This document shows, in pieces, positions 20,949-54,799 of a stretch of 64,000 bases of DNA. The stretch lies in assembly GCA_009784555.1 (NCBI GenBank), contig WRBO01000005.1:6406-70405 (forward strand), written 5' to 3'. This stretch comes from Bacillota bacterium (GTDB lineage Bacteria > Bacillota > Clostridia > Christensenellales > UBA1242). A program made the position numbers and the translations under genes. The notes under the pieces were generated by a model that saw only the letters and a program-made list of their open reading frames with translations, made no database searches and was not told the DNA's origin. The stretch's first letter is position 1. Each line of letters opens with the position of its first letter.

Positions 20949-23900
20949 TTATTTGACCCTCATGCGGTGACGCATTGTGAAGAATAGACCGACACCCACA
21001 ATTAAGAAGCCGACGACACCCACAATGACCATGATTGCAACCATGTTCAGACCCTCGCGGATGACGAATGATTCGGCGAAGATTGTAGCACCGCTGGCTA
21101 CCTCTAGCCTTATTTGATATGAGCCGACCTCGATAAATGGAAATCCCGCCAGGATGTTCGGTGAGCCCGCGTGCATGACGATTCGGTGAAATTCCTCTCC
21201 GTCACGTGTTAGTATCAGTTCCGAGTCGCCGAAGAGTTGGAAAATCAAATACGGGTTGTATCGGATTATGAATACGTCTGTGGTTGTGCTGCCGAATGGG
21301 TGGTTGCTCTGGATTACTGGTTGTTGCATTGGCATTATCATAATTGTAAACGACCGATAGATTGGTGGGCGGATATTGCCCTGGGCCACGCGCATTGTTA
21401 CGATGTATTGGCCACTGCGCCCTACGCCCGCGCGCAGGGATATTTGTGTCAGGTGTCCCTCGGGGAACAGGTGGCGTGCATCCGAACCGTTCAATGCCAC
21501 ACCCACGATTTCGATGTTTGGGGCGCCAGGGACGAAGAAACTCTCCATATGTTCGGTTGGGTTTACCAGTTGAACCATGAAGTCAATTCGCAGGCGGCCA
21601 GCAGGAGTCAAGTTATAAACGTATTCAACGGTAAAGCGATATAGCCCCGGGTCGGTGAAGTTCCAGAAGCGGCGTTCATGTTGACTGGTTGCCCGGAAGT
21701 CCTCTATTACCATGCCGTTACGTGTAACATGCATTTGCGAGATATACATGTGCAGGCCAGGCAAGCTGTTTGATGTGAATGGGATTTCCATCACGTTTAT
21801 ATTTATTTCGTTGTTGAACACCATTCCATCAATGACCGATTCCCCGTTTACCAAGATTGGTGGGCGGGTCAAGTTAATCAAGGTAAAGTGTTCGACCGTA
21901 TCCGTGTCTGTTGTGCCAGGGATGACATAGGTGAATATCCTGTGGTTTCCCGCCCAGTCCATAATTCGGAATGTAATCAATCCGTAATCGTGCGCGGACA
22001 GGCGCAATTCGTCCCCGACGAACAGACGTCCCACAGGGCGGCCGTTGAATGAATAATCGGCAAAATACAGGTTGCCAGGGTGTTGGTTGTGGCGGGCGCC
22101 CCCAGGTGTTTGCAGGGTTACAATCAGCCCAGCCGCGCCCAATTGGTTAAACAGAAGGTAATGCGGCACAGGCAGGCCCGCACCCTCGGCCGGGAAGGCG
22201 TTTGGACTCTCGACATTTATGGATACGTTTGATAACTCGCTGCTCCATATTGGTGTTACGGCCAGGTACATGCGACTGCCCGTTAGGTCGGATTCCAGGA
22301 TGTATATGTATGTAAAGACACTGTTCCCTATTATATCTTGGCCAGACAATTCGACCTGGGGGTCGTCCATGTTTATTACACGGCGCGGATAGTTCAATGA
22401 CGGCACGATTTCCAAGCGGTCTTGCCATTCTTCTTGGTTGTTTTCGACGACGATGAAATAGCTTGGGATACGGCGTTGTTGGAATGTGTTGCCGACGGCT
22501 ATGTTTAGAATGAATGGCTCGGGACTGGCAATTAATTGGGTACGGTCATAGCGCGGGTTTGATTCGCTCTCGGGTTCCCAATCCGCAAAGTCAGGGTTTT
22601 CGGTGTTAAAGAAGACCTGGTACGTTGTGTTGTCGACGTCCGTGATTGTGAATTCGTATGTTGAAACAGCCCATGCATCGTTCATTACGGTTATCACGTA
22701 TCGGCCCGCGTTCGTCAGGTTGAATCGTGTTTGACCGCGGCGCACGGTACGAGTAGTTGTCAGCAGGCGGCGGTTAGTTTCCGATTCGTCCAGTGTAGGG
22801 TCAAAGTTTGGGTTTGGGAATGTACGCGCGTATGTAATTGTAACGTTGAACAGGGTGCTTGGGTTGATGAAGCTGACGGATACTATGCCGTCGACCGAGC
22901 CCATTGCGATGTCCTCGGACACGTCCCCCCCGTTCAGGTTCGAGAATATCATTTCAGGCAGGTTGATATAAAACACCCATTCTTGGTCAAAGATTACGTG
23001 GCCCGTGCCACGGCTGACCAAGACTACCCGCCAATGTGATTGGGCGAAGGCGGAAGGCAGGCCAAAATGTACCGTCATCATATTTTCGTATGGGGTGAAT
23101 GTCATGTTTTCGGCACTGTTGATAAATTGGCCGTTGCGGTAAACACGTAGCTCGTGAACGTTCGAGGTAAAGGATATTTCCACGCCGCGTTCGTCACCCG
23201 TATGGTGCAGTAATCGGTTCTGTACAACGACCGGTTGTGTTCCACCCAGGAACGCAAAGCCAAATTCATTGCCCCAAATTCCGTTGTGTTCGGCGACGAC
23301 TTGGCGGCGGAATGGGTCGGTGACGGTTATGCGCAGTTCACGTGATGCCCCGTTTGGAATGATGACCTCGCCCGTGTGGGGGATGAATTCCTGGCTGACA
23401 TGTGTGCCGTCGAACATATCAAACAGGCCCAGGGTCATGAAGTTGAAACTGCGGAACATTGGGTGTAGTAGATGCCAGTTCACGATGGATACCGTGAGAG
23501 AACCGTTATCCCCCTCGGCCATTGCAATCATAGGCATCAGAGTATTGTTAGTAATTTGGAATACATCCACGTTCCATACATGAAAGCGGTTGTTTATTGT
23601 TAGGGTCATGACACCCTCGCCCAATGCGCCTATCCAACCGTTCAGAACATCGACCAAGTCGGCAGGGCGCGCGTTATTGAATACCATCGGCGTTTCGATA
23701 AAGTGATGGCCGCCCAAGGTTATTCCCGTTTGCGCGGTTTGATTAAATCGGCGGAAGACACGGTTTTCGTATCGAATTTCAAAGTAAGGGTTTTGGTTCC
23801 AGAACTCGGTCACATCATTTACGCGCAAGCCTTGGCCGAAGACACGAACCTGGTCCGCTATTAGGTTGTCGCCGTCAACCACGCCCGCCGTACCGATACG

Positions 23901-26900
23901 GTCGATGTATCCCAGTCCGCGTAGTTGGATAAAGTACTCGCGAGTGTTGCCGGCCTCGTCCCTTTCGGTTATTCGGAAGAAACGCGATTGACCCGGTTGC
24001 AATCCAACACGTTGGGCGAACGGTGCCCCACCGTATTCAAAGTGGATTTCACCCGTCATAGGGGTTAGGGCGGGTGTGACCTCTACATATGATATCGAGA
24101 AAGCCTCTAAATCTGGGTTCAGGATAGGGCGACTAAATATAAAATTATTTGGTACCGCATAGATAAACCTATCTTCGTTCAGGTCATTTGTGGTGAACCC
24201 CGCACGTTCGTTCCAGAGTCTGTCCAAGGCTTGGATATTTCGGAAGTTGTGTTGCGGCGGCGTATTGTCGATGACAATCGAGTGTGATATCGGCGGAACC
24301 ATCGGGTCATCGGTATAGAGGATGACGCCGAATACATCGTTCTCGGCCCATCCCATGTTGGTCAGCATGTATTCAACGCGCACCACCCCGCCGTCGACCG
24401 TTTGGGTCAACGATGGAACGTTTGTAATTGTTGGGTGGTTTGGGGTGTTTAATTGTCCGCGGGTGATGCGGCTGTTTGTTACGTCGGCGAAGAACCTGTT
24501 TGGGTCGGATTGGGTGTACACAAAGCGCAATGTTTCGCCCGTTTGTAATTGTGTCGAGCCCAATGAAACACGGTTAGTTCCGCGATAGAATGCACCTGGG
24601 CTGCCTCCTCTTTCGATTTCAAAGAGGATTTCACTCCTGTTTGGTTCGTTGATACGTTCGCCAAAGCCATAGAGTTGCCATCGCATACCGCCACTGCCGT
24701 CTGTGAATGATAGCCTGTACATTCCTGTGTCTGTGAACGGGATGGATGCGTTGTTTGCGTTACGGTCGCGCAGGGTTGTAAAATCACCGCCCGCGATATC
24801 CCGTTGTTGTACCACCAAATTCAAACGCAAGGATTGAAAATTAAAGGATGTTTGCGGAATACGCGCCCCGAATTCATTTGTGGTATAGAAGTGCAGTTGC
24901 ATGATGCTGGACCCGAAGGCGACCTCCTCTCCGTCCACAATCGCCGTGTGTCCGAACTTTGTTCCGAATGTTGGCATTCGCACGGATGCGGTCGAGTTTG
25001 TTTGCAACACGACATCGTGGCCAGGAACCATGCGGGTGTTATTTATTCTTTGAAAGTTTGTAATGTCAGCAGTTTTCAGGCCAAAGTCGATTTCAATCGC
25101 ACTGTCGAAAACCCCTGGGTTCGCGATAATTGGTGTATTATCAACGATAAAGAAATAGTTTCGTTCGATTTCGTCCAATCGGTCGGCGGGCACCGTGACC
25201 GGGTTAAATCGGCGGGTGATTACATAGACACCAGGCAAGGTTCCCTCGTTACGGTCGGCACGGTTGATTTCGCGATAAACCCAATGTTCGGCCAAGTTCG
25301 TGTTGGCGGGGCGTTGATACAAACGCTCGGTCGATGTGACATCGCGCGCGAACGGATAGTTCGGGTTGACGTGGCGGGTGCGGATGACCTCGTCATCCAC
25401 CGTTTCCTCTGTATAATAAAATCTTTGCCAATTTAATTCGTGGAATGCCATGTCGACCGTATCAACAACAAATTGGTTGTTCATTCCGCCGACGATAAAT
25501 TCACTCTGTAAAAATGCAAATGTCGCAAATTCGCGGTTGGAAATTCCGCCCGGGCGAACGACCGAGGCCGTTTCGCTCCATTCGTCGCTGGCCGCATCGA
25601 CCACCAGTTCGGGCACATCGTCCTCTAGGATTGTTCCACGGCTCATATCGAAATTCACGAAAACGTAATAGAACGATATGTTGCCCAGCGCGTCCTCGGT
25701 ACGGAAGATATAGAAATTTTCGCGGTTCAGATGAACATAGTGGCGGTTGACGTTCGCGGGAACCTCTATGTCCCAATCGGTGCCCTCCAATGCCAAATGT
25801 TCCCCCAATGGGCGGTTGCGGTCAAATACCGTTTGGAAACTGGTTTCCGCCATTTCTAAACTTATCCCTACGTTATCGATTGGAATTGCGAAACCATAGC
25901 GTGTTTCCCATTCCTCGCGCGGGAAGAGCGTTCCGATTGAATTTACACGCGGTACGATGGCCGTGCCGAACATGCCCGCGTTCGCCAATATTTCATAAAG
26001 GGTTTCGGTCGTGTACAATGTTGTGCCAAGGCCGCGGACATGGAAATCCAAGGCGGCGGACATCGCAACGTCCGAGCCGATGATTTTATTTTGTCCGAAC
26101 CCGACCCACGTTGCCTCGGTCGTCATGTTCATGTGGTTCAAATCGTCAACCATCGGGTTTTGGGCAAAGCCCTGGGTTGAGTTATCAATTACCAATGTGA
26201 AAATAGACGTATTTCCCGCCATGTCCATGATGTGGAATATGTACAATCCCGCCGCACGGAAAGTAATCGGTAAACGATATCCGATATGGGTGTTGTTAAC
26301 GTCGCGTATCATAACGGGGCGCAGTTGCAATGGCTCGGCCCCCGTGCCCATCATCGTATATGGCGTGGCCAAGTTCGCCGCGGTATGGTCATCCGTTTGC
26401 AGGAAACTGGTAAACCTGTTTTCAAATGCGTGAAAGAAAACCTGGGCACGGTGAAAACTGACACCGCTTGGTTTTAATCCCCAACGCAATCCGATTTCAA
26501 AGTTGATGTCACCCGCACCCCCCCATATGGCAAAGTCAGGGTGTGTGTTTGGAACGACGAATTCGCGCCCGCCAACGTTTTCCAATTGGAATGAATTGAC
26601 CTTGGAGTTATCGACGATGACACTGAATTGCGCGCTGGCCTGGCCCAATGCCCCGTAAAAAACACGGAAGGTATATATTCCGTCGAAATAACGGCCCTCG
26701 GCATCCAATTGAGTTGCCAGTTGCGTTGCGAAATTTTCCAAATCAAAAGACGGGATTGTGCGAATATGTTGTCCGTCAAAGGTCGTGATGACCAATTCGA
26801 TACGCGGGCGCATCATAAATGGTGACAATTCGGAATACGCCGTTGCCCCGTCCATGAATACGAGGAATGAGCCACTTAACGTAACGCGGCGGTCAACAAA

Positions 26901-28637
26901 AGCGTTCAGCGTATAAACGTCCAAAATATTTCCGCCCGCGTCGGTACGTGCAACGCGCACATCCATAACGTTCAAAATGCGGAAGTTGAATATTTGGCGG
27001 AAGACAACGCGTTCATGGCCGCTGGCCACCGGGAACACGTAATACAGGACAACGATGTATTCGCCCGAGGCGTCAAAGGGACGTCCCTCTACAAATGGTT
27101 GTTGTACCCAACCGCGCCCATCGTTAAATGACACGGTGTTCAAAAATTCAATACGTGGACGGCCGTCCGGCCATGGGGTTGCGTTGACCTCGGTTTCAAA
27201 TGTTGCGGTTCCAAAGATTTGCACAGGTGGGCTGTTTGTTACGACTGGACGGAACCCGCCACGCGCACCGGAGGCCCATTGTTCCATTTGTGTTTGGAAT
27301 GTGCGTGCACCCGCAACCGTTGTTGCGACCGTGTTGGCGGCGGTTGGTAATAGGTCAAGTCCCGATATATCCGCGTTGACCTCGGCATTGCCGAACCATG
27401 CGGGGCGGCTTTGGTTTGGGGTGTCCCAGTCGGGCTGGTTATCGAAAAATTCCTCGAAATGGGCCTGGAACCCGAAAATTTCCAAGGTATATGTGTATCC
27501 GGTAAAATGCAAAACAGGAATTTCGACCCCGTCGAAGACCAAAATCATACGCGAGCGCAGGATGTATTGCCCCAATCGCTCGAACGTTATGCGGTATATG
27601 TCGGTTTCGTCTTCGCGCATTTGTTGCGGCGGGTCGACGGGAATTTGTTGAAAGTTTCGTGTGTCGACGTTGACCTCGAACCTGCGTGGGTCGAAACGTA
27701 CAAATGGGTTTGGCCCCGCAAAGTTGAAAAAGAACTGGTCGGTGCCCTCGCGTTGGACAATTGGGGCCTCGGGCGTGGCAACCCCTGTTTCCGAAATCGT
27801 GTTCAAAATAGGCAATAATTCATAGTGACGCGTGTGGACGATGAAAAATGCGAACTCTACGACGATGTTTGTGCGCACCCATCCCCAAACGTCGCTGGCG
27901 ATTGTTATGTTGAAACGGAAACGGTAAAAGCCCTCGTCAAAAAAGGTCGCGGCGAAACTGTATTGGTTGTTGATGGCGATGCGCCCCGCGTTTGCGGGTT
28001 GGGCCGTCCATGCGCGCATGACATCGTTCGATTGGTTGTCAAAGTTTTGGAACATCCATGGTGTTGTGCTGTAATCAAATCGTGTTGTATCGTATATGAA
28101 ATTTCCGTTTGCATCCGTTGCGTAACCCGTGCCTGTGCTTCTGCGCCCTGTGAATTCAAACCATGTTGCGGTTGGGGCCATGTTACGCCCCGTTAGGTTA
28201 GTTAATTCCACCACCACACGGTTGGCATCGCCCGCGCTGCTGTCCAACATTATCATGCCAAAGTCATGGACAAACACGCCCTCGTCATTTATGGCTGGGC
28301 GGCCGCCGCTGGCCCAATTCAGTGTCGGATCTTCGGATACTATCCGACGCATGTCAACGTCACTAAAAATCGGACGTGCGTCCCCCGTTGTGCCGAAAAA
28401 TTCACTGGTCAGGACCAGGTCTTGGTCCATGCCCCTGTCTCGACCCATTGTCAGGCGGCCGGCATTGTCCCCAACAACAGGGGGGACATAATCAAACCGA
28501 CCATCGGGAACCAATACGTTGTGACCGTCGGGAGATATTGCATTAACGGTTCGCGCAGTGAGAGGCAGCAAAAATCCCCCACCCACCATAAAGGCAAGCA
28601 GGGCGACAATCGCAAAGGACAGAAACCATTTCCTCAT
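20949..28637 (-). CDS. Giant (2562 aa) type-I membrane or surface protein
   Basis: Uninterrupted 7.7 kb ORF. N-terminal signal-like segment (WFLSFAIVALLAFMVGGGFLL) and C-terminal TM plus basic tail (VAIMVIVGVVGFLIVGVGLFFTMRHRMRVK). I recognise no catalytic motif. Confidence 0.8.
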   Translation of the reverse strand: MRKWFLSFAIVALLAFMVGGGFLLPLTARTVNAISPDGHNVLVPDGRFDYVPPVVGDNAGRLTMGRDRGMDQDLVLTSEFFGTTGDARPIFSDVDMRRIVSEDPTLNWASGGRPAINDEGVFVHDFGMIMLDSSAGDANRVVVELTNLTGRNMAPTATWFEFTGRRSTGTGYATDANGNFIYDTTRFDYSTTPWMFQNFDNQSNDVMRAWTAQPANAGRIAINNQYSFAATFFDEGFYRFRFNITIASDVWGWVRTNIVVEFAFFIVHTRHYELLPILNTISETGVATPEAPIVQREGTDQFFFNFAGPNPFVRFDPRRFEVNVDTRNFQQIPVDPPQQMREDETDIYRITFERLGQYILRSRMILVFDGVEIPVLHFTGYTYTLEIFGFQAHFEEFFDNQPDWDTPNQSRPAWFGNAEVNADISGLDLLPTAANTVATTVAGARTFQTQMEQWASGARGGFRPVVTNSPPVQIFGTATFETEVNATPWPDGRPRIEFLNTVSFNDGRGWVQQPFVEGRPFDASGEYIVVLYYVFPVASGHERVVFRQIFNFRILNVMDVRVARTDAGGNILDVYTLNAFVDRRVTLSGSFLVFMDGATAYSELSPFMMRPRIELVITTFDGQHIRTIPSFDLENFATQLATQLDAEGRYFDGIYTFRVFYGALGQASAQFSVIVDNSKVNSFQLENVGGREFVVPNTHPDFAIWGGAGDINFEIGLRWGLKPSGVSFHRAQVFFHAFENRFTSFLQTDDHTAANLATPYTMMGTGAEPLQLRPVMIRDVNNTHIGYRLPITFRAAGLYIFHIMDMAGNTSIFTLVIDNSTQGFAQNPMVDDLNHMNMTTEATWVGFGQNKIIGSDVAMSAALDFHVRGLGTTLYTTETLYEILANAGMFGTAIVPRVNSIGTLFPREEWETRYGFAIPIDNVGISLEMAETSFQTVFDRNRPLGEHLALEGTDWDIEVPANVNRHYVHLNRENFYIFRTEDALGNISFYYVFVNFDMSRGTILEDDVPELVVDAASDEWSETASVVRPGGISNREFATFAFLQSEFIVGGMNNQFVVDTVDMAFHELNWQRFYYTEETVDDEVIRTRHVNPNYPFARDVTSTERLYQRPANTNLAEHWVYREINRADRNEGTLPGVYVITRRFNPVTVPADRLDEIERNYFFIVDNTPIIANPGVFDSAIEIDFGLKTADITNFQRINNTRMVPGHDVVLQTNSTASVRMPTFGTKFGHTAIVDGEEVAFGSSIMQLHFYTTNEFGARIPQTSFNFQSLRLNLVVQQRDIAGGDFTTLRDRNANNASIPFTDTGMYRLSFTDGSGGMRWQLYGFGERINEPNRSEILFEIERGGSPGAFYRGTNRVSLGSTQLQTGETLRFVYTQSDPNRFFADVTNSRITRGQLNTPNHPTITNVPSLTQTVDGGVVRVEYMLTNMGWAENDVFGVILYTDDPMVPPISHSIVIDNTPPQHNFRNIQALDRLWNERAGFTTNDLNEDRFIYAVPNNFIFSRPILNPDLEAFSISYVEVTPALTPMTGEIHFEYGGAPFAQRVGLQPGQSRFFRITERDEAGNTREYFIQLRGLGYIDRIGTAGVVDGDNLIADQVRVFGQGLRVNDVTEFWNQNPYFEIRYENRVFRRFNQTAQTGITLGGHHFIETPMVFNNARPADLVDVLNGWIGALGEGVMTLTINNRFHVWNVDVFQITNNTLMPMIAMAEGDNGSLTVSIVNWHLLHPMFRSFNFMTLGLFDMFDGTHVSQEFIPHTGEVIIPNGASRELRITVTDPFRRQVVAEHNGIWGNEFGFAFLGGTQPVVVQNRLLHHTGDERGVEISFTSNVHELRVYRNGQFINSAENMTFTPYENMMTVHFGLPSAFAQSHWRVVLVSRGTGHVIFDQEWVFYINLPEMIFSNLNGGDVSEDIAMGSVDGIVSVSFINPSTLFNVTITYARTFPNPNFDPTLDESETNRRLLTTTRTVRRGQTRFNLTNAGRYVITVMNDAWAVSTYEFTITDVDNTTYQVFFNTENPDFADWEPESESNPRYDRTQLIASPEPFILNIAVGNTFQQRRIPSYFIVVENNQEEWQDRLEIVPSLNYPRRVINMDDPQVELSGQDIIGNSVFTYIYILESDLTGSRMYLAVTPIWSSELSNVSINVESPNAFPAEGAGLPVPHYLLFNQLGAAGLIVTLQTPGGARHNQHPGNLYFADYSFNGRPVGRLFVGDELRLSAHDYGLITFRIMDWAGNHRIFTYVIPGTTDTDTVEHFTLINLTRPPILVNGESVIDGMVFNNEININVMEIPFTSNSLPGLHMYISQMHVTRNGMVIEDFRATSQHERRFWNFTDPGLYRFTVEYVYNLTPAGRLRIDFMVQLVNPTEHMESFFVPGAPNIEIVGVALNGSDARHLFPEGHLTQISLRAGVGRSGQYIVTMRVAQGNIRPPIYRSFTIMIMPMQQPVIQSNHPFGSTTTDVFIIRYNPYLIFQLFGDSELILTRDGEEFHRIVMHAGSPNILAGFPFIEVGSYQIRLEVASGATIFAESFVIREGLNMVAIMVIVGVVGFLIVGVGLFFTMRHRMRVK

Positions 28638-29678: not shown

Positions 29679-31703
29679 TTACCAGTCAAATACATCATTG
29701 CGTTTTGCGTTTTTGATAACGATGTCGTTTCGGCGGCGGATGTCGTAATAGATATTTTCTTCGTCAAAGTATTTACTTGCCTGCCATTCTTCTGGGGCTT
29801 TGTACAATGTTACCAAGCCATTTTTAACACATTGGTACCATGGTGTAACGGTTGTACGTAACGGGTTAAATCCGAAACAGTAAACATACAACGAACCCAT
29901 TTTCAAATCCAACAATTCGTTAGGCGGCAGGAGGGGCCGCGAGACCTTGTTTTTGTTTATCGATTTCGACCCCGCCTCGCTGTCGTTTTCGGCGGCCTTA
30001 CCCGTTGTTTTGGAAATACTCTCGGTTTCGGTTTCGATTGCCATTTCACCCATCAGGTCACTGAACATCTTTCGCGTGTCCATATCGTTAACCCCGATGA
30101 ATATTTGGGTGTTACAGTTATTCCGAATTGTAACCGCAGATTCGGGGCCGTACACGGCCTCGAGTTGTTTATAGTCTTGTAATATCAATGTAAAGAACAA
30201 TCCACGGGAACGCGCAACGGTGATAATTGTACTGAAATCATTGATTTTTGGCATGTTACCAAATTCGTCCAAAATAAAGTACGTCGGCCATTTTAATGTT
30301 CCGCCCATGTTGTTCGCGGATTCAACCAGGGCCTTGTACAATTGGGCGACCATCAACGTCGCCAACGGGTGACGAATTTTAATTTGGTCGGGGATGATGA
30401 GGAACAATACGGTCGGCTTGTCAACGAACCCCTCGAACATGATTTCGGTTCCCGATGTTATGTAACAAATACCCTTGTCGGCAAACATAGACAGTTTGTT
30501 CGTAACAACACCAAAGAAGTTACGCATTGTGTTTTCACTGTTGGCGACAACCGTTTGGGCCAGCATGGATGCGGGCGAGAGTTTACTCCTCCCCTCGAAA
30601 TAGTTACGGATTGAACCGAAGCTGTTATTCGGGTCGTTATCGCGCAGGGTCAGGATTTTGAAAACGTTATAGAAATTGAAACGTTCCTTGGTCATGCCCA
30701 GTTCCGGGCGCAGACTGTCTTCCAGCATTGCCAAGGCCGTCCCTTGTATCATGTCGCGGGCCCCTTGTTCCCAACTGGGGTCTTTTTCGTTTTCGATTGG
30801 ACAAATAACCGCACAAATGTCCTTGATGTCGGCCTCGGATTCGGACAGTAATCTTTGTTTCAATGTCTTGCGTTCCATATCCGCCATATCAAATGATGGA
30901 AAAGCGACCTTGTTAAATTCATACCATTCGTTCGGGTAATTTTGCGCGATTATACGCAAACCCATGTCGTTTGGGTTGACACCCGAATGTTTAATAAGCT
31001 CTTTGTCCAAACCGTGCGCGCGTTGGAACATGTTCCATGCACGTTCAAACGGGTTCCATGTGGATGATTTTGTTGGTTCGGACAGATTAAAGACCTGGAC
31101 ATCGTAACCGTTACGGCGCAATGTTTCGGCCATCATGTTGTACAATTCGCCCTTTGGGTCGGTGACGACCATGTTTGGCTTTGCACCGCTGTGCCCCAGG
31201 GTATATATAAACGGGTTGACGAATGTTTGACCCTTACCCGAACCGGTGGTTCCCAAAACGATTGTGTGGTAATCCTTTGGTACCATGTTGATGTGGATGT
31301 CGCGGCCGCTGGCCTCGAACCGTACTAATGTCCCCGTTTTTTTCTGGCGCCCTATTCCTGACAATGTCGAATAGATATATTCGCGATTGGCCTCGGATTT
31401 GGTCATCCAACGGTTGGAATAAAATTGTTCGACCGTTTTTGATTTTTCATCGACCAACAAAAATCCACTGACAACTATTGCGACCGCCGCAATCGGTGCA
31501 ACCAACACAATGGTAATAAATGTTGGATTGGTAAAGGCCGCCAACGACAATGCCGGGTCACCGCCCATGACATTGACCCCAACCATAGCCAGGATAATAA
31601 TCACCAACATTATCGCCGCGCCGAACCCCGCATAGATAGGCCATTTTTCTTTTATATTATCAAGACTTATCAAATCATCCCCCTGTGAAAACCCTTTCAC
31701 CAT
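29679..31703 (-). CDS. Type IV secretion coupling protein (VirD4/TraG/TraD family ATPase)
   Basis: N-terminal TM segments, Walker A VLGTTGSGKGQTF, Walker B YFILDEFGNMPKI, and TLILQDYKQL. The start is uncertain: ATG at 31703, with a TTG-initiated ORF open to 31733. Confidence 0.8.
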   Translation of the reverse strand: MVKGFSQGDDLISLDNIKEKWPIYAGFGAAIMLVIIILAMVGVNVMGGDPALSLAAFTNPTFITIVLVAPIAAVAIVVSGFLLVDEKSKTVEQFYSNRWMTKSEANREYIYSTLSGIGRQKKTGTLVRFEASGRDIHINMVPKDYHTIVLGTTGSGKGQTFVNPFIYTLGHSGAKPNMVVTDPKGELYNMMAETLRRNGYDVQVFNLSEPTKSSTWNPFERAWNMFQRAHGLDKELIKHSGVNPNDMGLRIIAQNYPNEWYEFNKVAFPSFDMADMERKTLKQRLLSESEADIKDICAVICPIENEKDPSWEQGARDMIQGTALAMLEDSLRPELGMTKERFNFYNVFKILTLRDNDPNNSFGSIRNYFEGRSKLSPASMLAQTVVANSENTMRNFFGVVTNKLSMFADKGICYITSGTEIMFEGFVDKPTVLFLIIPDQIKIRHPLATLMVAQLYKALVESANNMGGTLKWPTYFILDEFGNMPKINDFSTIITVARSRGLFFTLILQDYKQLEAVYGPESAVTIRNNCNTQIFIGVNDMDTRKMFSDLMGEMAIETETESISKTTGKAAENDSEAGSKSINKNKVSRPLLPPNELLDLKMGSLYVYCFGFNPLRTTVTPWYQCVKNGLVTLYKAPEEWQASKYFDEENIYYDIRRRNDIVIKNAKRNDVFDW

Positions 31704-31761
31704 TATTATAAGGAAAACCCCGCACAATACCAAATAAAAAATTTACACCAACGAAACAAAA

Positions 31762-31778
31762 ACCACCCGCATGGGGTG
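31762..31778 (-). terminator. Intrinsic terminator after the VirB2-like gene
   Basis: Hairpin CCACCC-catgc-GGGTGG followed by UUUUUGUUU on the minus strand. An A-run on the other side makes it potentially bidirectional. Confidence 0.6.
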
Positions 31779-31800
31779 GTTTTGATTATGGCTTTGCGTT

Positions 31801-32148
31801 TTAGAAAGTTTCCCAGTCGGTGATTTCGCTACCTTCGTTTGATATTGCGCCAATAAGGATGTTGAAGATAACTATCAAGAGCACGACAGCGATAACCGCA
31901 ATAATTGTCCAGAGCAATTGTTTTTTCGCTTCTTTACGTTTACCCTCGTCCTCGGCCGATGCCAATTTGAATCCAATGTAAATCGCGAACACAAGCGCAG
32001 CCATACCAAGGAGACCAAGCAAGACGTTAAACACAGTCTGAACAACTGTAACAACGTTGCCCACAACCTCCGAAGCGCTACCGCCAGCACCTTCTACTGG
32101 TTGGATGTCTGCCACGCGCATGGCCATTTTCGCCATCAAGTTCCCCAT
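31801..32148 (-). CDS. Small two-TM membrane protein, VirB2/TrbC pilin-like
   Basis: 115 aa with two long hydrophobic helices (VFNVLLGLLGMAALVFAIYIGF and LLWTIIAVIAVVLLIVIFNILIGAI) separated by the charged loop KLASAEDEGKRKEAKKQ. It lies directly upstream of the coupling protein. Confidence 0.5.
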   Translation of the reverse strand: MGNLMAKMAMRVADIQPVEGAGGSASEVVGNVVTVVQTVFNVLLGLLGMAALVFAIYIGFKLASAEDEGKRKEAKKQLLWTIIAVIAVVLLIVIFNILIGAISNEGSEITDWETF

Positions 32149-38521: not shown

Positions 38522-38590
38522 ATCAAAGATTATACCCCATTACCCCGCACATAGTCAACGTTAAAAGTTTCCATATATAGTATTACAAAT

Positions 38591-38997
38591 CATTTGGCCC
38601 GAGGGCGTTAGCCGTGTGATGCGCACGCAGTGCAAACCGAATAGTTCGGGCCGAGGCCGCAGGCCGAGCGTTTGGCCCGAAGGCAAAGCCCTGGGGGGGG
38701 GGTTTTACTTTTGCGTTTTCCGTTGGGGGGGTTTTCTAGGGGGCCTCCTTGCAGGGAAAACTAACTTTTCGGGCCGAAGCCGAGCGGAGCGAGGAGCGTT
38801 GTACAGTCACGATTGGTTGTGATGCATTGTGCACACTTGCCAGGAGAAATGACCGCCATGTTTATTTAGTTTTATAAAAGCACACAGGGCAGGCCAATTT
38901 CTCTGGTCCTCGGGTGCGAAAAGTTGTTGTTCCCTCGTCGGCCCTGTACCTTACAGTAACATGGATTGATTTTTATTCAAGGGTGTTACTGACAATT
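38591..38997 (+). ncRNA. Structured repeat element, copy B
   Basis: 38591-38745 matches 18494-18640, including an identical 42-nt block ATAGTTCGGGCCGAGGCCGCAGGCCGAGCGTTTGGCCCGAAG. Twin G tracts are G10 (38693-38702) and G7 (38725-38731). The middle is unique, closed by a long-range helix ACAGGGC...GCCCTGT (38884-38890 with 38941-38947). The shared 3' tail is CCTTACAGTAACATGG...AAGGGTGTTACTGACAATTTTA. Confidence 0.5.
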
Positions 38998-39213
38998 TTA
39001 ATCATTTAGATTCCCCAAGATATCTTCATATGAACAATCCAAAGATTTACACAGTTTCTTTAATACTTCCAAACTGGGTAGTCCTCTGCCCGCCGCATAA
39101 TCACCAATCACCGTCGGTGTGACACCAACCTCCTCGGCGATTTTCCTGTTGGTTTTTCCCGAGTATTTTATGTGGCGTTTTATATTATCCGCAATCGCCT
39201 CTCTGAACGTCAT
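38998..39213 (-). CDS. XRE family HTH transcriptional regulator (71 aa)
   Basis: HTH_3 pattern: GKTNRKIAEEVGVTPTVIGDYAAGRGLPSLEVLKKLCKSLDCSYEDIL. Confidence 0.85.
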   Translation of the reverse strand: MTFREAIADNIKRHIKYSGKTNRKIAEEVGVTPTVIGDYAAGRGLPSLEVLKKLCKSLDCSYEDILGNLND

Positions 39214-39222
39214 GCTCTATGA

Positions 39223-39275
39223 TGAGATTTTATCTCACAAAAATACTTGACATGAGATATCATCTCACTTATTGT
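39223..39275 (+). promoter_or_regulatory. Divergent promoter and operator region of XRE module 1
   Basis: Two 15-bp palindromes TGAGAT-N3-ATCTCA lie at 39223-39237 and 39253-39267. They flank and overlap TTGACA (39247-39252), 17 nt, then TATTGT (39270-39275), which drives the small + strand ORF. Confidence 0.6.
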
Positions 39276-39306
39276 TGTTCTAGTAAAACTACAAAGGGGG
39301 CACACG

Positions 39307-39435
39307 ATGGATGAAGTCATTAGGGAGTTGTTGGAGATACTGCGCGGCTATATGGAGGATATGGCGACATTGCGAACACGGATGAACGAAACAATTAGGC
39401 GTATCGCCGAGTTAGTTGCCGACGAGGGCAAATAA
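39307..39435 (+). CDS. 42-aa helical microprotein, paralogue 1
   Basis: Encodes MDEVIRELLEILRGYMEDMATLRTRMNETIRRIAELVADEGK, with SD AAAGGGGG. It differs from 43539-43667 at 7 of 129 nt: 6 synonymous changes and one Asp/Glu change. It is too short for the supplied ORF track. Confidence 0.7.
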   Translation: MDEVIRELLEILRGYMEDMATLRTRMNETIRRIAELVADEGK

Positions 39436-39454
39436 CTTTTCGCATCCGAGGACA

Positions 39455-39492
39455 AGAAAAAATGGCCTGCCCCGCAAGCCATCTTTTTTTAT
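39455..39492. terminator. Bidirectional intrinsic terminator
   Basis: AAAAAATGGC-ctgccccgcaa-GCCATCTTTTTTT lies between the convergent microprotein and permease genes. The stem is short. Confidence 0.45.
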
Positions 39493-39565
39493 TAGTTCCT
39501 TGGCGGTCTTTTTTCCTCCGCAGGAAAGAAAAGCCTATTTGCCCGAAGGAGGCAACGGGTAAACC

Positions 39566-42927: not shown

Positions 42928-42950
42928 GTATATGCGATTTTCATGGCAAT

Positions 42951-43252
42951 AAAATGTCAGTAACCCCCTTTACATATATGAGTTCCATGTTACGTTAGGG
43001 TGCAAAGGCGTCGGCTGCCTACGAGATGCTGTTTTTAGTCTTCTGCGGATACACTGTGGATGTTGCTAACTGTAGGTGTACCAGTCCTCGAAGACGAAAA
43101 ACACATCTCGGGCGCGCCTCGCCACATCCATGTTTTTGGATGAATGAAAATTGAAAACTGAATATCCTGCACACCCTGCGGCCCCTTGGAAAACCCCCCC
43201 CAGTTAAAAACGCAAATTCAATAACCCCCCCCAAGGGAATTTACTGACATTT
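42951..43252 (-). ncRNA. Structured repeat element, copy C (inverted relative to A and B)
   Basis: The reverse complement aligns with 18583-18859. Shared blocks are the twin G8 tracts (C8 on + at 43194-43201 and 43225-43232), TTTTCAATTTTCATTCATCCAAAAACATGGATG, GGCGAGGCGCGCC, TCGAGGACT, TATCCGCAGA, TAGGCAGCCGA(T/C)GCCTTTGCACC and GTAACATGG. It is bracketed by inverted repeats at 42951-42970 and 43233-43253. Confidence 0.5.
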
Positions 43253-43459
43253 TTAGATATCGGTGCGGCCAAAAAGGTAATCGGTTGAAACGCCAAAGAA
43301 ATTGGCGAGTTTGTCGACAGTTTCAAATTTTGGTTGCGTTTCATTTTGTTCGTATCTGGCGATTGCGGCGTGGCTGACACCCACTATCTTCCCTACCTCG
43401 CGTAAGGATAACTTTCTTTCGGTACGTAATTCTCGTAATCGTTCGCCAAATATTTTCAT
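43253..43459 (-). CDS. XRE family HTH transcriptional regulator (68 aa)
   Basis: MKIFGERLRELRTERKLSLREVGKIVGVSHAAIARYEQNETQPKFETVDKLANFFGVSTDYLFG is a classic HTH_3 sequence. The track ORF extends to 43489. Confidence 0.9.
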   Translation of the reverse strand: MKIFGERLRELRTERKLSLREVGKIVGVSHAAIARYEQNETQPKFETVDKLANFFGVSTDYLFGRTDI

Positions 43460-43469
43460 TGTAATATAA

Positions 43470-43524
43470 TTGACAATTACCAGTGTCACGCTTATAGTGA
43501 CAATATGTCATAGAAACTGTGACA
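43470..43524 (+). promoter_or_regulatory. Promoter and operator region of XRE module 2
   Basis: TTGACA (43470-43475), 17 nt, then TATAGT (43493-43498). Inverted repeats built from TGTCA/TGACA half-sites are TGTCAC-N7-GTGACA (43484-43502) and TGTCA-N8-GTGACA (43506-43524). Confidence 0.55.
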
Positions 43525-43538
43525 ACGGAGGGGAGAAA

Positions 43539-43667
43539 ATGGAAGAAGTCATTAGGGAGTTGTTGGAGATTTTGCGTGGCTATATGGAGGATATGGCGAC
43601 CTTGCGAACACGGATGAACGAAACAATCAGGCGTATTGCCGAGTTAGTTGCCGACGAGGGCAAATAA
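43539..43667 (+). CDS. 42-aa helical microprotein, paralogue 2
   Basis: Encodes MEEVIRELLEILRGYMEDMATLRTRMNETIRRIAELVADEGK, with SD GGAGGGGAG. See 39307-39435. Confidence 0.7.
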   Translation: MEEVIRELLEILRGYMEDMATLRTRMNETIRRIAELVADEGK

Positions 43668-43844
43668 CTTTTCGCATACGCGGTACCCGTAATATAGGGC
43701 CGACGAGCTGGAAAAGGGTCCGCGCCGCCGAGGACCAGCGGAAACGGCCTACCCTTTATTGTAACTTTTTGCAGTTGACCACATGGTGGTCTTTCCGCCT
43801 CCACAGGCAAGCGGACCCTTTTCCCGCGAAGGAGGCCCCCCTCT

Positions 43845-44669
43845 CTATTGACGCTCCCCCCTGGCACAGCCGCCTTTGCATTTGACGTCGCACATTTTGT
43901 AACAACCGACTTTGAATTCGCCGCCATTATTGAACTTTACGTTGACCGTTTCCTTTATAACATTGTGGTCTTGGGCGATGCCGCGGCCGTCGGGAGTTTG
44001 AACCTCGGACCCGTAACGCGGCATTTTCTCGGACGTTTCCGCGTAATGATTGTTTTCATAGGCCAAACAACAAAGCAAGCGTCCGCACATCCCGTTGATT
44101 TTTTGCGGGTTCAGAGAGAGCCCCTGGGTCTTTGCCATTTTGATTGTGATGTTTTGACCGCATGTTCCGAAACGAACACAGCAACAAATTTCACCACATG
44201 GGCCCAGGGCCCCGGTCACCTTGACCTCGTCCCGTGCTCCGATTTGTTTTAATTCTATGCGGGCCTTTAGGGTGAATGCAAGGTCGCGCACCAATTCGCG
44301 GAAATCAACACGCTTTTCGGCGGCGAATTGAATGATTATCTTGCCGCCGTCCATTGTGTAATACGCGGACAGGGGTTTCATTTCCAGTTTATGCTTTTCG
44401 ACCTTTTCGTTGGCAATACGCAAGGCACGTTTTGCACCGGCCTTTAGCTCTTTTATAGAATTAAGGTCACGTTCATCCGCCACACGAATAATAAGGTTGT
44501 TTTCACCGTGACGGGATTTGGATTCGATTGGTTCGGAACAAACCTCTCCCCATTCCGCGCCGTTTGGTGACTCCACGATAACAATATCGCCGTTTTTGAC
44601 GGGGATGTCCGTATCATATCGCGCAGGGGCGACGATGCCCGCAATTTTAACATTTACCGTTTTTCGCAT
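43845..44669 (-). CDS. PSP1 domain protein (YaaT/RicT-like)
   Basis: The start MRKTVNVKIAGIV overlaps the holB stop (TAATG). The PSP1 C-terminal pattern is present, with Cys clusters GPCGEICCCVRF and MCGRLLCCLAYE. The ORF is open to 44867. Confidence 0.85.
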   Translation of the reverse strand: MRKTVNVKIAGIVAPARYDTDIPVKNGDIVIVESPNGAEWGEVCSEPIESKSRHGENNLIIRVADERDLNSIKELKAGAKRALRIANEKVEKHKLEMKPLSAYYTMDGGKIIIQFAAEKRVDFRELVRDLAFTLKARIELKQIGARDEVKVTGALGPCGEICCCVRFGTCGQNITIKMAKTQGLSLNPQKINGMCGRLLCCLAYENNHYAETSEKMPRYGSEVQTPDGRGIAQDHNVIKETVNVKFNNGGEFKVGCYKMCDVKCKGGCARGERQ

Positions 44670-45314: not shown

Positions 45315-45869
45315 GTGAAACAAATCAAAAAGAACACGGGCAAGAAACAAGCCGTCATTATAATGAATGGCCGTGCGGGTGTTGGCAAGGACACGTTGAT
45401 GGATTTTGCCAAGAATTATTATTCCGTGCGAAATTTGAGCAGTGTGTTACGAATTAAAGAGGCGGCGATTGTTGCGGGTTGGGATGGCGAGTATGACAAT
45501 CGTGGGCGGCAGTTATTGGCCGATTTGAAGCAAGCCATGATTAAATATGATTCGTTGTCCATTACCAATTTTATTGTCGAGGAATATAACAAGTTTCGGT
45601 CGGTCGAGCAGGACGTTATGTTTATTCACATTCGTGAAGCCATAGAGATTGAAAAGTTAAAGCGCGCAATTCCAAGTGCGCGCAGTGTCTTTATCAAACG
45701 AGATACAGGTTTCGAGGGAAGTGTTGATACCAGCGAGGATACGGCATTAGAACACAAGTATGATTTTGTCTTTGATAATTCCGCACCGATTGAAAAGAGC
45801 GGTAAGGCATTTGTTAAGTTGATTGAGGAAATTAGGAACGCGGGGGTTGAGTTACCTCTTCTGAAATAA
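45315..45869 (+). CDS. P-loop NTPase / small kinase-like protein
   Basis: Walker A NGRAGVGKDT near the N-terminus. The 184 aa length is dNMP-kinase-like. The specific function is not supported. Confidence 0.5.
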   Translation: MKQIKKNTGKKQAVIIMNGRAGVGKDTLMDFAKNYYSVRNLSSVLRIKEAAIVAGWDGEYDNRGRQLLADLKQAMIKYDSLSITNFIVEEYNKFRSVEQDVMFIHIREAIEIEKLKRAIPSARSVFIKRDTGFEGSVDTSEDTALEHKYDFVFDNSAPIEKSGKAFVKLIEEIRNAGVELPLLK

Positions 45870-53039: not shown

Positions 53040-53064
53040 CCCCGTATCCACAGCGGGGTTTTTT
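53040..53064 (+). terminator. Intrinsic terminator
   Basis: CCCCG-tatccaca-GCGGGG followed by T6. The same 19-nt hairpin recurs inverted at 63651-63669. Confidence 0.7.
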
Positions 53065-53110
53065 CATTAGTTCGTGCGCCCTGCGCACATTTATGACACG
53101 TGGTCCGATG
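53059..53110 (+). repeat. About 50-nt direct repeat R1 (3' flank of uvrC)
   Basis: TTTTCATTAGTTCGTGCGCCCTGCGCACATTTATGACACGTGGTCCG aligns with 54793-54842. Its hairpin is GTGCGC-cct-GCGCAC (53074-53088). Confidence 0.7.
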
Positions 53111-53140
53111 TAGGTTTTTGTATACAGCAATAATATCCCC

Positions 53141-54799
53141 CTACTTCAGCCCGGGGATTGTTCGTTTGGCGCGGAGGTTTCGGTGGAAGGTGTTGGCGAA
53201 GCGGTGGGCCTCGTCCCGAACCCGTTGGAGGAGGCGGAGGGAGTAGCTGCGTTTGGAGAGTACGAGCGGAGTACTCTCCCCCGGTTTGAAGATTTCTTCG
53301 TTTTCCTTTGCCAGGGCGATGAAGTTGATTTCAGAGTTTCCCGCGACATCCATAACCGAGGATAGTTGGCCCTTGCCCCCGTCGATGACAATTAGGTCGG
53401 GGGCGATGCCGAATGAGATGTCGGGGGTTCCGATGCGGGCGAGGCGGCGGGTGATGACCTCTTGCATAGAGAGGAAGTCGTTGTTACCCATGCCGTGTTT
53501 GATTTTGAAGCGGCGGTAGAGTTTTTTCTCGGCCACGCCGTTTATGAAGACGACCATTGATGCGACCATATCCGTGCCGTCCGTGTGCGAGATGTCGTAA
53601 CATTCGATTTTTTTCGGCGGGTGGGTAAGGCCGAGTACAGTGCCCAGTTCGTCCACCGCGCCCACCGTGAATTGTTCGCGGAATTTGATTTTTTCAATGG
53701 ATGTGTCGATGTATTCATCCGCGTTGGTTTTCGCCATGTCGAGGAGTTGACGTTTAAGCGCGACCTTTGGGTTGAAGATGGTACAGCCGAGGGCGACAGC
53801 AACTTCCGTCATCGGAAATTCCGCGACGATTTGTTCGGGCACCACGTTTTGTTGATAATATTGCATTACGAAGCCAGAGAGCATGTCTTCCTCTGACTGT
53901 ACCCCCGCATGTTGTTCCGAGAAGTTTTGTATCCCGATTAATTTGCCCGCACGTACGGAGAGTACCGACACAACGAACACGTCCCCGCGGATTGCGTATG
54001 AGAAGACATCCGCGTTCAGGTCGCGCGCGACGTGGGTTATCGTGCGGTCACGCAATTTATCGAGGAAGTTCATACCGTTACGATAGCGGATTGCAATTTC
54101 AAATTGTTCAAGGGCGGCCGCGTTTTCCATTTTTGATTGGAGTTTTTCGCGTGCGCCGAATTCCCGTTCCCCGCGCAAAAAAGATTTAACATCGTCGATT
54201 ATTTTTAAGCATTCTTCGCGCGTTACCCGTTTGGCACAAGGGGCCAAGCACCGCCCGATTTGATGGTTTATGCAGGGTGTTTTTTTCGCAAATTCGACTT
54301 TGGAACATGTGCGTAATGGAAAGATGTCGAGAAGAGTGTCGAGTAGTTCGGATGCCCAGATGCCGTTGAAGTATGGCCCGAAGTATTTGCCGCCTTTTGT
54401 TAGTTTGCGGGTGACCTCTAGATACGGCCAGTCGCCGTCAGTTACCTTTATATATGGAAAGGTTTTGCTGTCTTTTAATAATATATTGTAGTGGGGTTGG
54501 TGTTTTTTGACCAAGTTGGCCTCTAGCCCCAGGGCGTCGTTTTCCGTTTTGGTGATGAAGTAGTCGAAGTCGCGCACCCGTTCCAGCATTGCGGTTACTT
54601 TTGCATCGTGACTGCCGCTCTTGAAGTAACTGCCCAATCTTGCGCGCAGGGCCTTGGCCTTGCCAATGTAGATGATGTGCCCCGCCCCATCGCGCATGAG
54701 GTAGACCCCAGGTTTTGCGGGGACGAGGGCGAGTTTTTCGTGGATTGGCCCTTGGGGGGGGTTATTGATTTTTGATTTTTCACTGGGGGGGGTTTCCAT
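53141..54799 (-). CDS. uvrC: Excinuclease ABC subunit C
   Basis: GIY-YIG domain (PGVYLMRDGAGHIIYIGKAKALRARLGSYF), a UVR domain and a C-terminal (HhH)2. The only plausible starts are the ATG at 54799 (METPPSEKSKINNPPQG...) or upstream to 54871. Either way both C8 tracts fall inside the coding sequence. Confidence 0.9.
   Translation of the reverse strand: METPPSEKSKINNPPQGPIHEKLALVPAKPGVYLMRDGAGHIIYIGKAKALRARLGSYFKSGSHDAKVTAMLERVRDFDYFITKTENDALGLEANLVKKHQPHYNILLKDSKTFPYIKVTDGDWPYLEVTRKLTKGGKYFGPYFNGIWASELLDTLLDIFPLRTCSKVEFAKKTPCINHQIGRCLAPCAKRVTREECLKIIDDVKSFLRGEREFGAREKLQSKMENAAALEQFEIAIRYRNGMNFLDKLRDRTITHVARDLNADVFSYAIRGDVFVVSVLSVRAGKLIGIQNFSEQHAGVQSEEDMLSGFVMQYYQQNVVPEQIVAEFPMTEVAVALGCTIFNPKVALKRQLLDMAKTNADEYIDTSIEKIKFREQFTVGAVDELGTVLGLTHPPKKIECYDISHTDGTDMVASMVVFINGVAEKKLYRRFKIKHGMGNNDFLSMQEVITRRLARIGTPDISFGIAPDLIVIDGGKGQLSSVMDVAGNSEINFIALAKENEEIFKPGESTPLVLSKRSYSLRLLQRVRDEAHRFANTFHRNLRAKRTIPGLK
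54749..54795 (+). repeat. Twin-G8 core motif, copy D (antisense to the uvrC 5' coding region)
   Basis: CCCTTGGGGGGGGTTATTGATTTTTGATTTTTCACTGGGGGGGGTTT, with G8 at 54754-54761 and 54785-54792. It is nearly identical to the reverse complement of 43191-43237. Confidence 0.75.

Follow-up and report, generated by a model that had tools for sequence, protein, structure and literature searches.

A 42-residue orphan helix encoded in at least three copies beside diverged XRE-type regulators, in a mosaic cassette family of an uncultured Bacillota bacterium

The module studied here occurs twice in a 64,000-nucleotide (nt) stretch of an uncultured Bacillota genome (contig WRBO01000005.1; the whole stretch is referred to as the window) and once more elsewhere in the same species. 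On balance, we favor the reading that it carries an orphan gene for a single-helix protein of 42 residues (the microprotein), that this gene exists in at least three copies, each gated by an XRE-type regulator, and that the copies belong to a lineage-restricted family of mosaic cassettes. A preliminary description of the window had assigned one layout to the loci at 38998–39435 and 43253–43667 (modules A and B), namely a minus-strand XRE gene, an operator/promoter region, and a plus-strand open reading frame (ORF) of 42 codons. All of these parts were recovered at both loci. The same description had taken the microprotein for the conserved cargo, with each copy lying beside a different repressor; the constraint on the ORF and the divergence of the XRE genes and operators agree with this, the third copy (copy C) included. 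The features of the modules are listed below, with lengths in amino acids (aa) and with HTH standing for helix-turn-helix.

39307–39435, + strand: microprotein gene copy A, 42 aa, MDEVIRELLEILRGYMEDMATLRTRMNETIRRIAELVADEGK; Shine-Dalgarno sequence GGGGG at 39296–39300
43539–43667, + strand: microprotein gene copy B, 42 aa, Glu2 in place of Asp2; Shine-Dalgarno sequence GGAGGGGAG
L003 10055–10183: microprotein gene copy C, between the serine dehydratase gene and spo0A, same species
38998–39213, − strand: XRE-A, 71 aa, HTH-only, Cro/CI-type; Pfam HTH_3, E value 3.5e-10, 40.2 bits
43253–43459, − strand: XRE-B, 68 aa from ATG, HTH-only; Pfam HTH_3, E value 3.5e-17, 62.6 bits
39247–39275, + strand: predicted promoter A, TTGACA-17-TATTGT, matching the consensus at 10 of 12 positions
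39223–39237 and 39253–39267: predicted operators A, TGAGAT-N3-ATCTCA twice, 30 bp apart, the second within the spacer of promoter A
43470–43498, + strand: predicted promoter B, TTGACA-17-TATAGT
43484–43502: predicted operator B, TGTCAC-N7-GTGACA, spanning the −10 hexamer of promoter B

Copies A and B of the ORF differ at 7 of 129 nt, six of the differences being synonymous and the seventh exchanging Asp2 for Glu, and our recount agrees with the earlier one. The ungapped A/B repeat spans 154 nt with 92% identity. Alignment of copies A, B, and C gives ten variable sites, of which nine are synonymous and one is the Asp/Glu exchange in frame +0; read in the five alternative frames, 0–5 of the ten sites are synonymous. 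The binomial probability of nine synonymous sites out of ten is ~3e-5, with an expected synonymous fraction of 0.22–0.28. Synonymous divergence (dS) between the copies is 0.17–0.39, and nonsynonymous divergence (dN) is at most 0.01 (Nei-Gojobori). A Shine-Dalgarno sequence and the ATG are present in all three copies despite unrelated upstream sequences. The synonymous-only pattern confined to one frame, the dS and dN values, and the recurrence of Shine-Dalgarno sequence and ATG thus identify a protein-coding gene under strong purifying selection, as had been proposed. That the 42-codon ORF is a real protein gene is, in our judgment, very probable. The distinct flanks of the three copies argue against their being assembly artefacts of one locus.

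An exact-protein look-up retrieved the same species from an ENA assembly and a JGI metagenome, in which copies A and B are unchanged; ENA contig L084 carries a gene identical to copy A. The gene calls of both sources include the microprotein ORFs, the call for copy C being lengthened upstream to 60 aa. The NCBI record of the metagenome-assembled genome (MAG) omits every copy, the two window ORFs included. In this record, XRE-A, XRE-B, and the PSP1 protein are MCL2846472.1, MCL2846477.1, and MCL2846478.1, respectively, and the four accessions between XRE-A and XRE-B correspond to the four other genes located there; hence, the microprotein ORFs are unannotated at NCBI. The host appears from its sequences to be a deep-branching, Clostridia-like lineage of uncultured Bacillota. 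Its PSP1/YaaT protein reaches a best identity of 48% among 185,579 species representatives, so that there is no close relative for a comparison of orthologous loci.

XRE-A and XRE-B both score above the Pfam gathering score for HTH_3 (23 bits) and have no domain beyond the HTH. The top library matches of the XRE proteins are phage repressor families (RstR subfamily and phrog_8), under the NCBIfam cut-off. XRE genes and operators had been described as unrelated between the two modules, and the comparison is consistent with this, since XRE-A and XRE-B share ~27% identity over 45 aa and the palindromes are different. XRE-C, the regulator accompanying copy C, is 57% identical to XRE-B with a dS of 1.72 between their genes, and XRE-A is barely alignable. 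Pairwise identity among the XRE proteins of the three microprotein cassettes ranges from 19 to 57%.

Palindromic operators laid over TTGACA-17-TATNGT promoters had likewise been reported, and they were confirmed at both loci. Lying 9–25 nt from the XRE start codon, the palindromes coincide in part with the microprotein promoter. Neither operator A nor operator B occurs again in the 64 kb (shuffle expectation 0.00). Copy C has a TTGACA-18-TAGAGT promoter with a perfect 20-bp palindrome (AGAGTGCATA/TATGCACTCT) across its −10 hexamer. From this arrangement, it is probable that each XRE protein represses the adjacent microprotein promoter. The additional operator of module A, beside the XRE-A start codon, probably serves autoregulation. 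As three unrelated or strongly diverged repressor-operator pairs would gate the same effector, each cassette would be an independently addressable switch for one product. This wiring of one effector to several repressors is unusual; the regulatory design itself is of a known type.

Downstream of the microprotein ORF lies a conserved hairpin, which we refer to as X. Its copies in and around the two modules are as follows.

39419–39556, + strand: X_A, long imperfect hairpin ending 10 nt short of the stop codon of a convergent permease gene (39566)
43697–43845, + strand: X_B, complete X after a 50-nt insertion, with a different, self-complementary closing stem (GGAAAAGGGTCCGC/GCGGACCCTTTTCC)
38740–38947, − strand: X'_A, X paralogue on the XRE side in the sense of XRE-A, with an insertion of ~62 nt in its 3' half

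Identity between modules A and B had been described as ending about 12 nt past the stop codon. Ungapped identity does end ~10–12 nt after the stop, but homology resumes beyond the 50-nt insertion in module B and runs on through the shared hairpin. We aligned eight copies of X: three downstream of the microprotein ORF, two on the far side of XRE genes, and another three from other loci. They define an imperfect hairpin of ~140 nt with 36 pairs, in which 95.1% of the alignment cells are paired. Compensatory double changes occur at 15 pairs. Column shuffling (500 replicates) never attained these figures, and pairing falls to 41–63% in controls with the partner displaced by 1–3 columns. One G-U pair is kept in seven of the eight copies, aside from several sporadic ones. 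This conserved G-U pair points to sense-strand specificity for X, which would fold as RNA or as single-stranded DNA. An A6 and a T6 tract border the apical helix (GGCCTGCC/GGCGGTC) in the manner of a bidirectional terminator, and the helix encloses a loop of ~31 nt. The T-tract pairs with the A-tract, and a covarying lower stem of 16 bp lies outside the T-tract. We do not class X as a plain terminator, since the lower stem beyond the T-tract demands read-through. A simple terminator scan reported only a small hairpin at the ORF end. Rfam 15 has no match at gathering score in the whole window, and what the modules return at a permissive threshold is noise (E > 0.1).

X and the microprotein gene overlap. 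The final five sense codons and the stop (GCC GAC GAG GGC AAA TAA) make up the 5' arm of the lower X stem in copies A and C. In copy B, this old arm persists only as the 3' end of the ORF (43651–43676), its pairing partner having been lost. The partnerless arm is nonetheless conserved codon by codon, which argues that conservation of the ORF 3' end is due to coding. This observation bears on an alternative that we consider unlikely, in which the conserved unit is primarily an RNA, with X as a small RNA or cis-element and the ORF as a leader, a translation sensor, or an incidental frame whose translation would open the lower X stem and thereby set the fate of the RNA. The strong, strand-specific covariation of X, the placement of the terminal codons within its 5' arm, and its occurrence 3' of promoters without an ORF and of XRE genes all fit such a role. 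It does not explain why nine of ten changes are synonymous over the entire ORF, ~110 nt of which lie outside X, nor why the arm in copy B stays conserved as codons. The downstream genes are convergent, and an attenuator would thus have nothing to attenuate. A dual role as protein and RNA may apply.

X copies on either side of an XRE gene form inverted repeats. Window positions 38887–38942 match 39418–39472 in inverse orientation at 87.5%, and at L003 the inverted match across the XRE gene has 82% identity over 118 nt. We rejected the idea that these repeats bound a transposon or an invertible segment, as their arms are paralogues of 82–87% identity, X is also met as a single copy at other sites, and the vicinity has no recombinase gene. 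An integron cassette was also considered and rejected. The arms of X (GGGCAAATAACTTTTC/GAAAAGCCTATTTGCCC) misfit the attC cores RYYYAAC and GTTRRRY on inspection by eye, without a pattern search; moreover, the ORF has its own promoter, and the window and the other loci contain neither a cassette array nor an integrase.

AlphaFold2 models the microprotein as one unbroken helix over residues 2–41 with a predicted local distance difference test score (pLDDT) of 95.9, in line with the amphipathic helix expected earlier. In the sequence, the heptad a positions hold I5, L12, M19, M26, and I33 and the d positions L8, Y15, L22, T29, and L36, with extra hydrophobic residues at e and g. Owing to this heptad pattern in a single helix, a coiled coil or a helical-bundle partner would fit. 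The protein is acidic (net charge ~−3) and soluble-looking, without a signal-like or membrane segment. It had been said to belong to no recognized family, which still holds for Pfam, NCBIfam, PHROGs, PADLOC, the PDB, and large protein sets. Specifically, Pfam gave nothing down to E = 1 except a sub-threshold match to DUF2087, and the SinI model of Pfam was not matched; NCBIfam, PHROGs, and PADLOC gave no significant match. A word-seeded search of 5.8 billion clustered proteins returned solely the copies of the gene itself, and a full HMMER search of 1.84 billion representatives added one spurious match to a repetitive eukaryotic ankyrin-repeat protein. Sequence and Foldseek searches of the PDB were either empty or led solely to designed coiled coils with E > 0.08. 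The peptide had no match in GTDB genomes, JGI metagenomes, IMG/VR, or GenBank phages. The helix is invariant while the operators differ, which argues that the microprotein does not act on DNA or operators. As judged from the model, it may work by forming a coiled coil (helix-helix contact) with a partner encoded by the cassette or elsewhere in the cell. Any one specific mode of action is less likely than not.

Growth inhibition is one such mode. In that case, the module would resemble a toxin-antitoxin or abortive-infection system, with the microprotein as growth inhibitor, the XRE protein as transcriptional antitoxin or infection sensor, and a mobile element accounting for the multiple copies. 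XRE HTH proteins often are antitoxins or regulators of defense systems, PADLOC gave weak matches to CapH, RmrA, and control proteins, and the cassettes occupy a multi-copy mosaic setting. We nevertheless regard this explanation as quite improbable. The two genes are divergent and not co-transcribed, the peptide matches no toxin or defense model of Pfam, NCBIfam, or PADLOC, and no defense genes adjoin the loci. The same peptide stands beside unrelated XRE proteins, contrary to neutralization by protein-protein contact, and its acidic, soluble-looking sequence is not that of a membrane-active peptide. Known type II toxin-antitoxin systems with an XRE antitoxin (HigA, MqsA, HipB, and Xre-RES) were rejected on the basis of the divergent gene order and the absence of a match to a known toxin family.

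The helix might instead be an anti-repressor that binds the neighboring or another XRE protein, lifts repression, and closes a feedback switch. SinR, an XRE HTH protein, is antagonized by the small helical protein SinI, and a single amphipathic helix would suit such helix-helix capture. The Bacillus pairs SinR/SinI and SlrR/SlrA resemble the present cassettes in that an XRE-type HTH regulator is encoded beside a very small helical protein. They differ in gene order, which is divergent here and not a sinI-sinR operon, and in that one and the same peptide here accompanies unrelated XRE proteins. At 68–71 aa, XRE-A and XRE-B are HTH-only and lack the C-terminal interaction domain of SinR; the XRE proteins share only 19–57% identity; and the peptide has no SinI domain by the Pfam model. 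We therefore consider an anti-repressor very improbable. Peptide signaling of the RRNPP or Rgg-SHP kind was rejected too, because the XRE proteins have no TPR-like peptide-binding domain and the peptide is acidic and helical without a signal-like segment.

Returning to our preferred reading of a gated orphan helix gene, we compared the ages of its parts. The unit shared by the microprotein cassettes has sharp boundaries, one ~0–13 nt before the ATG and the other at the far end of X. The dS among the ORF copies is 0.17–0.39, whereas the XRE genes have a dS of 1.7 or are barely alignable. It follows that ORF and X were spread or homogenized recently and were not co-inherited with the repressor. 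Taken with the sharp boundaries, the age discordance indicates that ORF and X were copied or gene-converted among pre-existing, diverged XRE/operator cassettes. A recent spread within the cassette family is accordingly the likely history, and the age pattern, as far as divergence values reveal it, is the reverse of simple co-duplication.

The mechanism we propose is the following. The microprotein gene would be transcribed from its own sigma-70-type promoter and translated from its Shine-Dalgarno sequence, with the XRE gene transcribed divergently. An XRE dimer would bind the cassette-specific palindrome(s) on the spacer or the −10 hexamer and switch the microprotein promoter off, and loss of binding by one XRE protein would release the same helix from that cassette. 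Both transcription units would run into paralogous copies of X, which may stabilize, terminate, or process the transcripts, or may be the recombination site by which the unit spread. Cassettes carrying a second protein family, fam-2 (described below), would be other members of the family, with a DUF6291 gene following fam-2 in at least one. A bolder version, which is rather unlikely, would make this a new kind of cassette, in which X is a single-stranded DNA recombination or mobility site that moves a promoterless ORF together with X behind repressor-controlled promoters, and in which the 42-aa protein derives from helix 1 of fam-2 and mimics or antagonizes fam-2 or its target. If the proposed mechanism is true, one bacterium gates a single microprotein with several non-cross-reacting repressors, so that independent inputs converge on one output in a compact, natural form. 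New to the record is an orphan, strongly constrained 42-residue protein overlooked by standard annotation. The position of X over the stop codon and beside repressor genes, together with the age mismatch, suggests a way of moving small genes between regulatory contexts. The scope so far is one uncultured lineage, and general importance is unproven.

Several points weigh against the gated orphan gene as we describe it. Translation and expression of the microprotein gene are argued from sequence evidence only, and we infer repression by the XRE proteins solely from the geometry of palindromes and promoters. The gene is confined to one species represented by near-identical assemblies, with no independent phylogenetic replicate. 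Gene conversion may have contributed to the likeness of three young copies, although it would not yield a synonymous-only pattern. The whole transcript of module A folds no better than its shuffles (z −1.1), only the X part being structured, and X could be an element acting at the level of single-stranded DNA rather than RNA.

At least four sister cassettes accompany the microprotein cassettes in this genome. When metagenome contigs were scanned for the conserved core of X, two true matches emerged, L085 and L086, and further look-ups added L091 and L092. The window protein at 45315–45869 is FWE38_02195 in the NCBI MAG, and the small proteins of the four loci are FWE38_03000, _03080, _03750, and _04280; the shared FWE38_ locus tags place the loci in the same genome as the window. 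At three of the four, a small ORF and an HTH-only XRE gene point away from each other, and palindromes private to the locus overlie a TTGnnn-17-TAnnnT promoter. These XRE proteins are 45–49% identical to XRE-B and XRE-C, and the small ORF is followed by a repeated module termed P, by X, or by other repeat modules. At L091, the small ORF comes after RNase J with no XRE gene alongside and is followed by P, X, and the repeat modules c and b. The small ORFs are four diverged paralogues, designated fam-2.

L085 5642–5860: fam-2 gene
L086 985–752, − strand: fam-2 gene
L091 5001–5216: fam-2 gene
L092 5001–5198: fam-2 gene

The fam-2 proteins have 65–77 aa and an invariant N-terminus (MNELEQYTEDLH, ...GYIDC...). 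Among 5.8 billion proteins they were found solely in the FWE38 MAG, and Pfam, NCBIfam, and PHROG have no matching family. The predicted structure is a helical hairpin with helices 3–28 and 40–58 (pLDDT 88), for which Foldseek proposed nothing beyond generic helical hairpins (E > 2). The paralogues are old and constrained, with dS of 0.8–3.5 and omega of 0.08–0.25. At L086, a P module lies between the fam-2 gene and an intact DUF6291 gene and immediately precedes the latter, whose product scores 34.9 bits against Pfam PF19808 (cut-off 27.2). The MAG has two DUF6291 paralogues of ~247 aa, and the literature searched makes no mention of DUF6291. Viral contigs and phage genomes gave no match to DUF6291 or fam-2, for which reason we rejected a phage origin of these genes.

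The microprotein and fam-2 hold equivalent positions in their cassettes. Aligned with hhalign, microprotein residues 11–35 match residues 3–26 of fam-2, which make up its invariant N-terminal helix, with 29% identity, an E value of 0.011, and a probability of 3.9%. The aligned parts share the motifs Y-x-E-D-hydrophobic and I-x-R-hydrophobic-x-E, and the hidden Markov model score was reached or bettered by only 58 of 20,000 composition-preserving shuffles. With the like placement in the cassettes, these values suggest a possible relationship. By sequence comparison, the cassettes form a lineage-restricted family with at least seven members in this genome.

We then compared the cassettes with known systems. 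They are like the immunity switch of phages and mobile elements in having a small Cro/CI-type HTH gene divergent from a promoter overlapped by palindromes, and like the mosaic immunity regions of heteroimmune phages in having different repressor/operator pairs between near-identical flanks. Unlike in phage switches, the first gene past the promoter encodes an invariant single helix and not a Cro-like operator binder, and the cassettes lie between housekeeping genes with no prophage, integrase, or phage genes nearby. Measured against lambda CI/Cro, palindromes shared by a divergent gene pair are present (with binding predicted only), and a second DNA-binding protein of Cro type is missing. Phage and viral collections contain no homologues of the cassette proteins. 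Lacking a Cro-like second gene, a phage context, and phage homologues, the cassettes are not members of the phage-switch class.

The skin element of Bacillus subtilis offers a functional parallel. There, the Xre-like SknR represses the yqaF-yqaN operon, which contains small ORFs including YqaH, and YqaH counteracts the replication initiator DnaA, according to the title of the paper (bioRxiv 10.1101/2020.11.18.388090). The likeness, drawn from the available part of that preprint, is that an Xre-type repressor silences genes for small proteins, and that a small protein acting on a host master protein is the kind of action we envisage for the microprotein. The two are likened by description only, and they differ in that YqaH belongs to a multi-gene prophage operon and the microprotein is encoded by a solo, multi-copy gene; a long hairpin and multiple repressors are not described for the skin element in the same part of the source. 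By analogy, SknR gating small ORFs would be the nearest functional precedent among those found. In Streptomyces, XRE-DUF397 pairs are numerous, with 14 in S. coelicolor (PMC10364602). As far as the available part of that article goes, they share with the present cassettes the presence of many paralogous pairs of XRE and small protein in one genome. They differ in that the small gene is downstream of the XRE gene and belongs to the DUF397 family, while here it is divergent, encodes an orphan helix, and is near-identical between pairs.

Both modules had been placed directly beside copies of a structured element. The adjacency is real, but the element is a mosaic and not one unit. Repeat copies in the window lie at 18490–18860, 38590–38997, 42950–43250, 53049–53116, and 54749–54900. 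The parts beside the two modules are as follows.

38948–38997, − strand: P module, TTGAAT at 38980–38975, 16-nt spacer, TACTGT at 38958–38953; abuts the XRE-A stop codon and faces away from the module
42950–43250, + strand: mosaic element beside module B, made up of P (42955–43000), hairpin modules e and d, and module b (C8...C8); converges on the 3' end of XRE-B

P homologues also occur at window 18805–18862 and at L085, L086, and L091. Their consensus is TTGAC-16/17-TACTnT with an upstream TG, and P is thus best described as a putative promoter. We rejected a kinship of the microprotein promoters with P, as the alignment shows no homology past the Shine-Dalgarno region. The element at 42950–43250 is 71% identical to window 18585–18860 and 90% identical to L092 5278–5505. 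Module a is a hairpin (TTCGGGCC...GGCCCGAA), and module b is defined by its C8...C8 tracts. They are 84–91% and 78% identical, respectively, to the low-complexity sequence encoding the DUF6291 C-terminus (...ADAFGPNARPYGLGPNYNEKNPPVKNEQNENPP...; L086 1–515, minus strand). Since the window copies of modules a and b carry stops, they are pseudogene debris. A fam-2 gene contributes its 3' end to module e (L003 9869–9687 translates to ...GIDCLIANNLPPNGNSGPPREQ), and modules c and d are further hairpins, as is X'. From these matches, the structured element consists mostly of recombined cassette remains (promoter, hairpin, and pseudogene pieces) rather than of a single RNA. Pneumococcal BOX, Neisseria Correia elements, and REP/BIME are mosaic intergenic repeats as well, and the present modules resemble them as modular hairpin repeats, some promoter-like, that are shuffled among intergenic sites and gene ends. 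They differ from these in including pseudogene pieces of DUF6291 and the fam-2 3' end together with one protein-coding gene under selection. That the ORF is merely a chance frame in young, non-functional repeat DNA, its synonymous bias accidental, is scarcely credible: it does sit inside a genome-wide mosaic repeat family, its copies are young, and the NCBI record leaves it unannotated, but the bias (P ~3e-5) appears in one of six frames only, promoter, operator, Shine-Dalgarno sequence, and ATG accompany every copy despite unrelated upstream sequence, and ungapped alignment fails for the non-coding DNA around A and B but not for the ORF.

P or a remnant of its −35 side abuts the stop codon of three unrelated regulators with the same junction, CTGACA-ttt-TTA on the plus strand (18850–18862, 38990–39000, and 43243–43255). 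The regulators are a MarR protein (18860–19285, Pfam MarR_2), XRE-A, and XRE-B. As a sequence feature, the shared junction of P and stop codon suggests a defined element end or insertion target. The hairpin or palindrome arms of module c vary in a compensatory way (GTGGGC/GCCCAC, GTGCGC/GCGCAC, and GTGAAC/GTTCAC). Its copies are at window 53055–53107 and 54784–54849, L003 9476–9534, L085 6074–6125, and L091 5451–5516, and module c may act as an RNA hairpin or may represent variant operators.

The 5' region of uvrC (gene at 53141–54745, minus strand; region at 54740–54900) is built of modules P, c, and b. The conserved N-terminus of UvrC (IHEKLALVPAKPGVYLMRD) has no in-frame ATG, GTG, or TTG nearby. 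The GTG at 54783 is in frame with uvrC only if the C8 tract is read as C9, and with GTG at 54871, the start annotated for the long form, repeat sequence would be translated. The reason may be a homopolymer error, phase variation, or an unusual start codon.

Repeats also coincide with differences between assemblies. In JGI metagenome 3300010369 (L002 2462 versus window 43011), a gene pair of 705 aa and 93 aa with a different P copy replaces spmA/spmB to the left of the XRE-B element. A rearrangement at the repeat between strains would account for this, as would a chimeric assembly. ENA contigs end exactly at the repeat on the XRE-B side, as seen at the start of L001 and the ends of L084 and L092. 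Aside from the cassettes, giant ORFs of 3850 aa and 2562 aa lie near genes for a VirD4/TraG-type coupling protein and a pilin-like protein of a type IV secretion system, as labeled by Pfam in the ENA context (1944–13496, 20949–28637, and 29679–32148, all on the minus strand). This region may be a conjugative or adhesion island.

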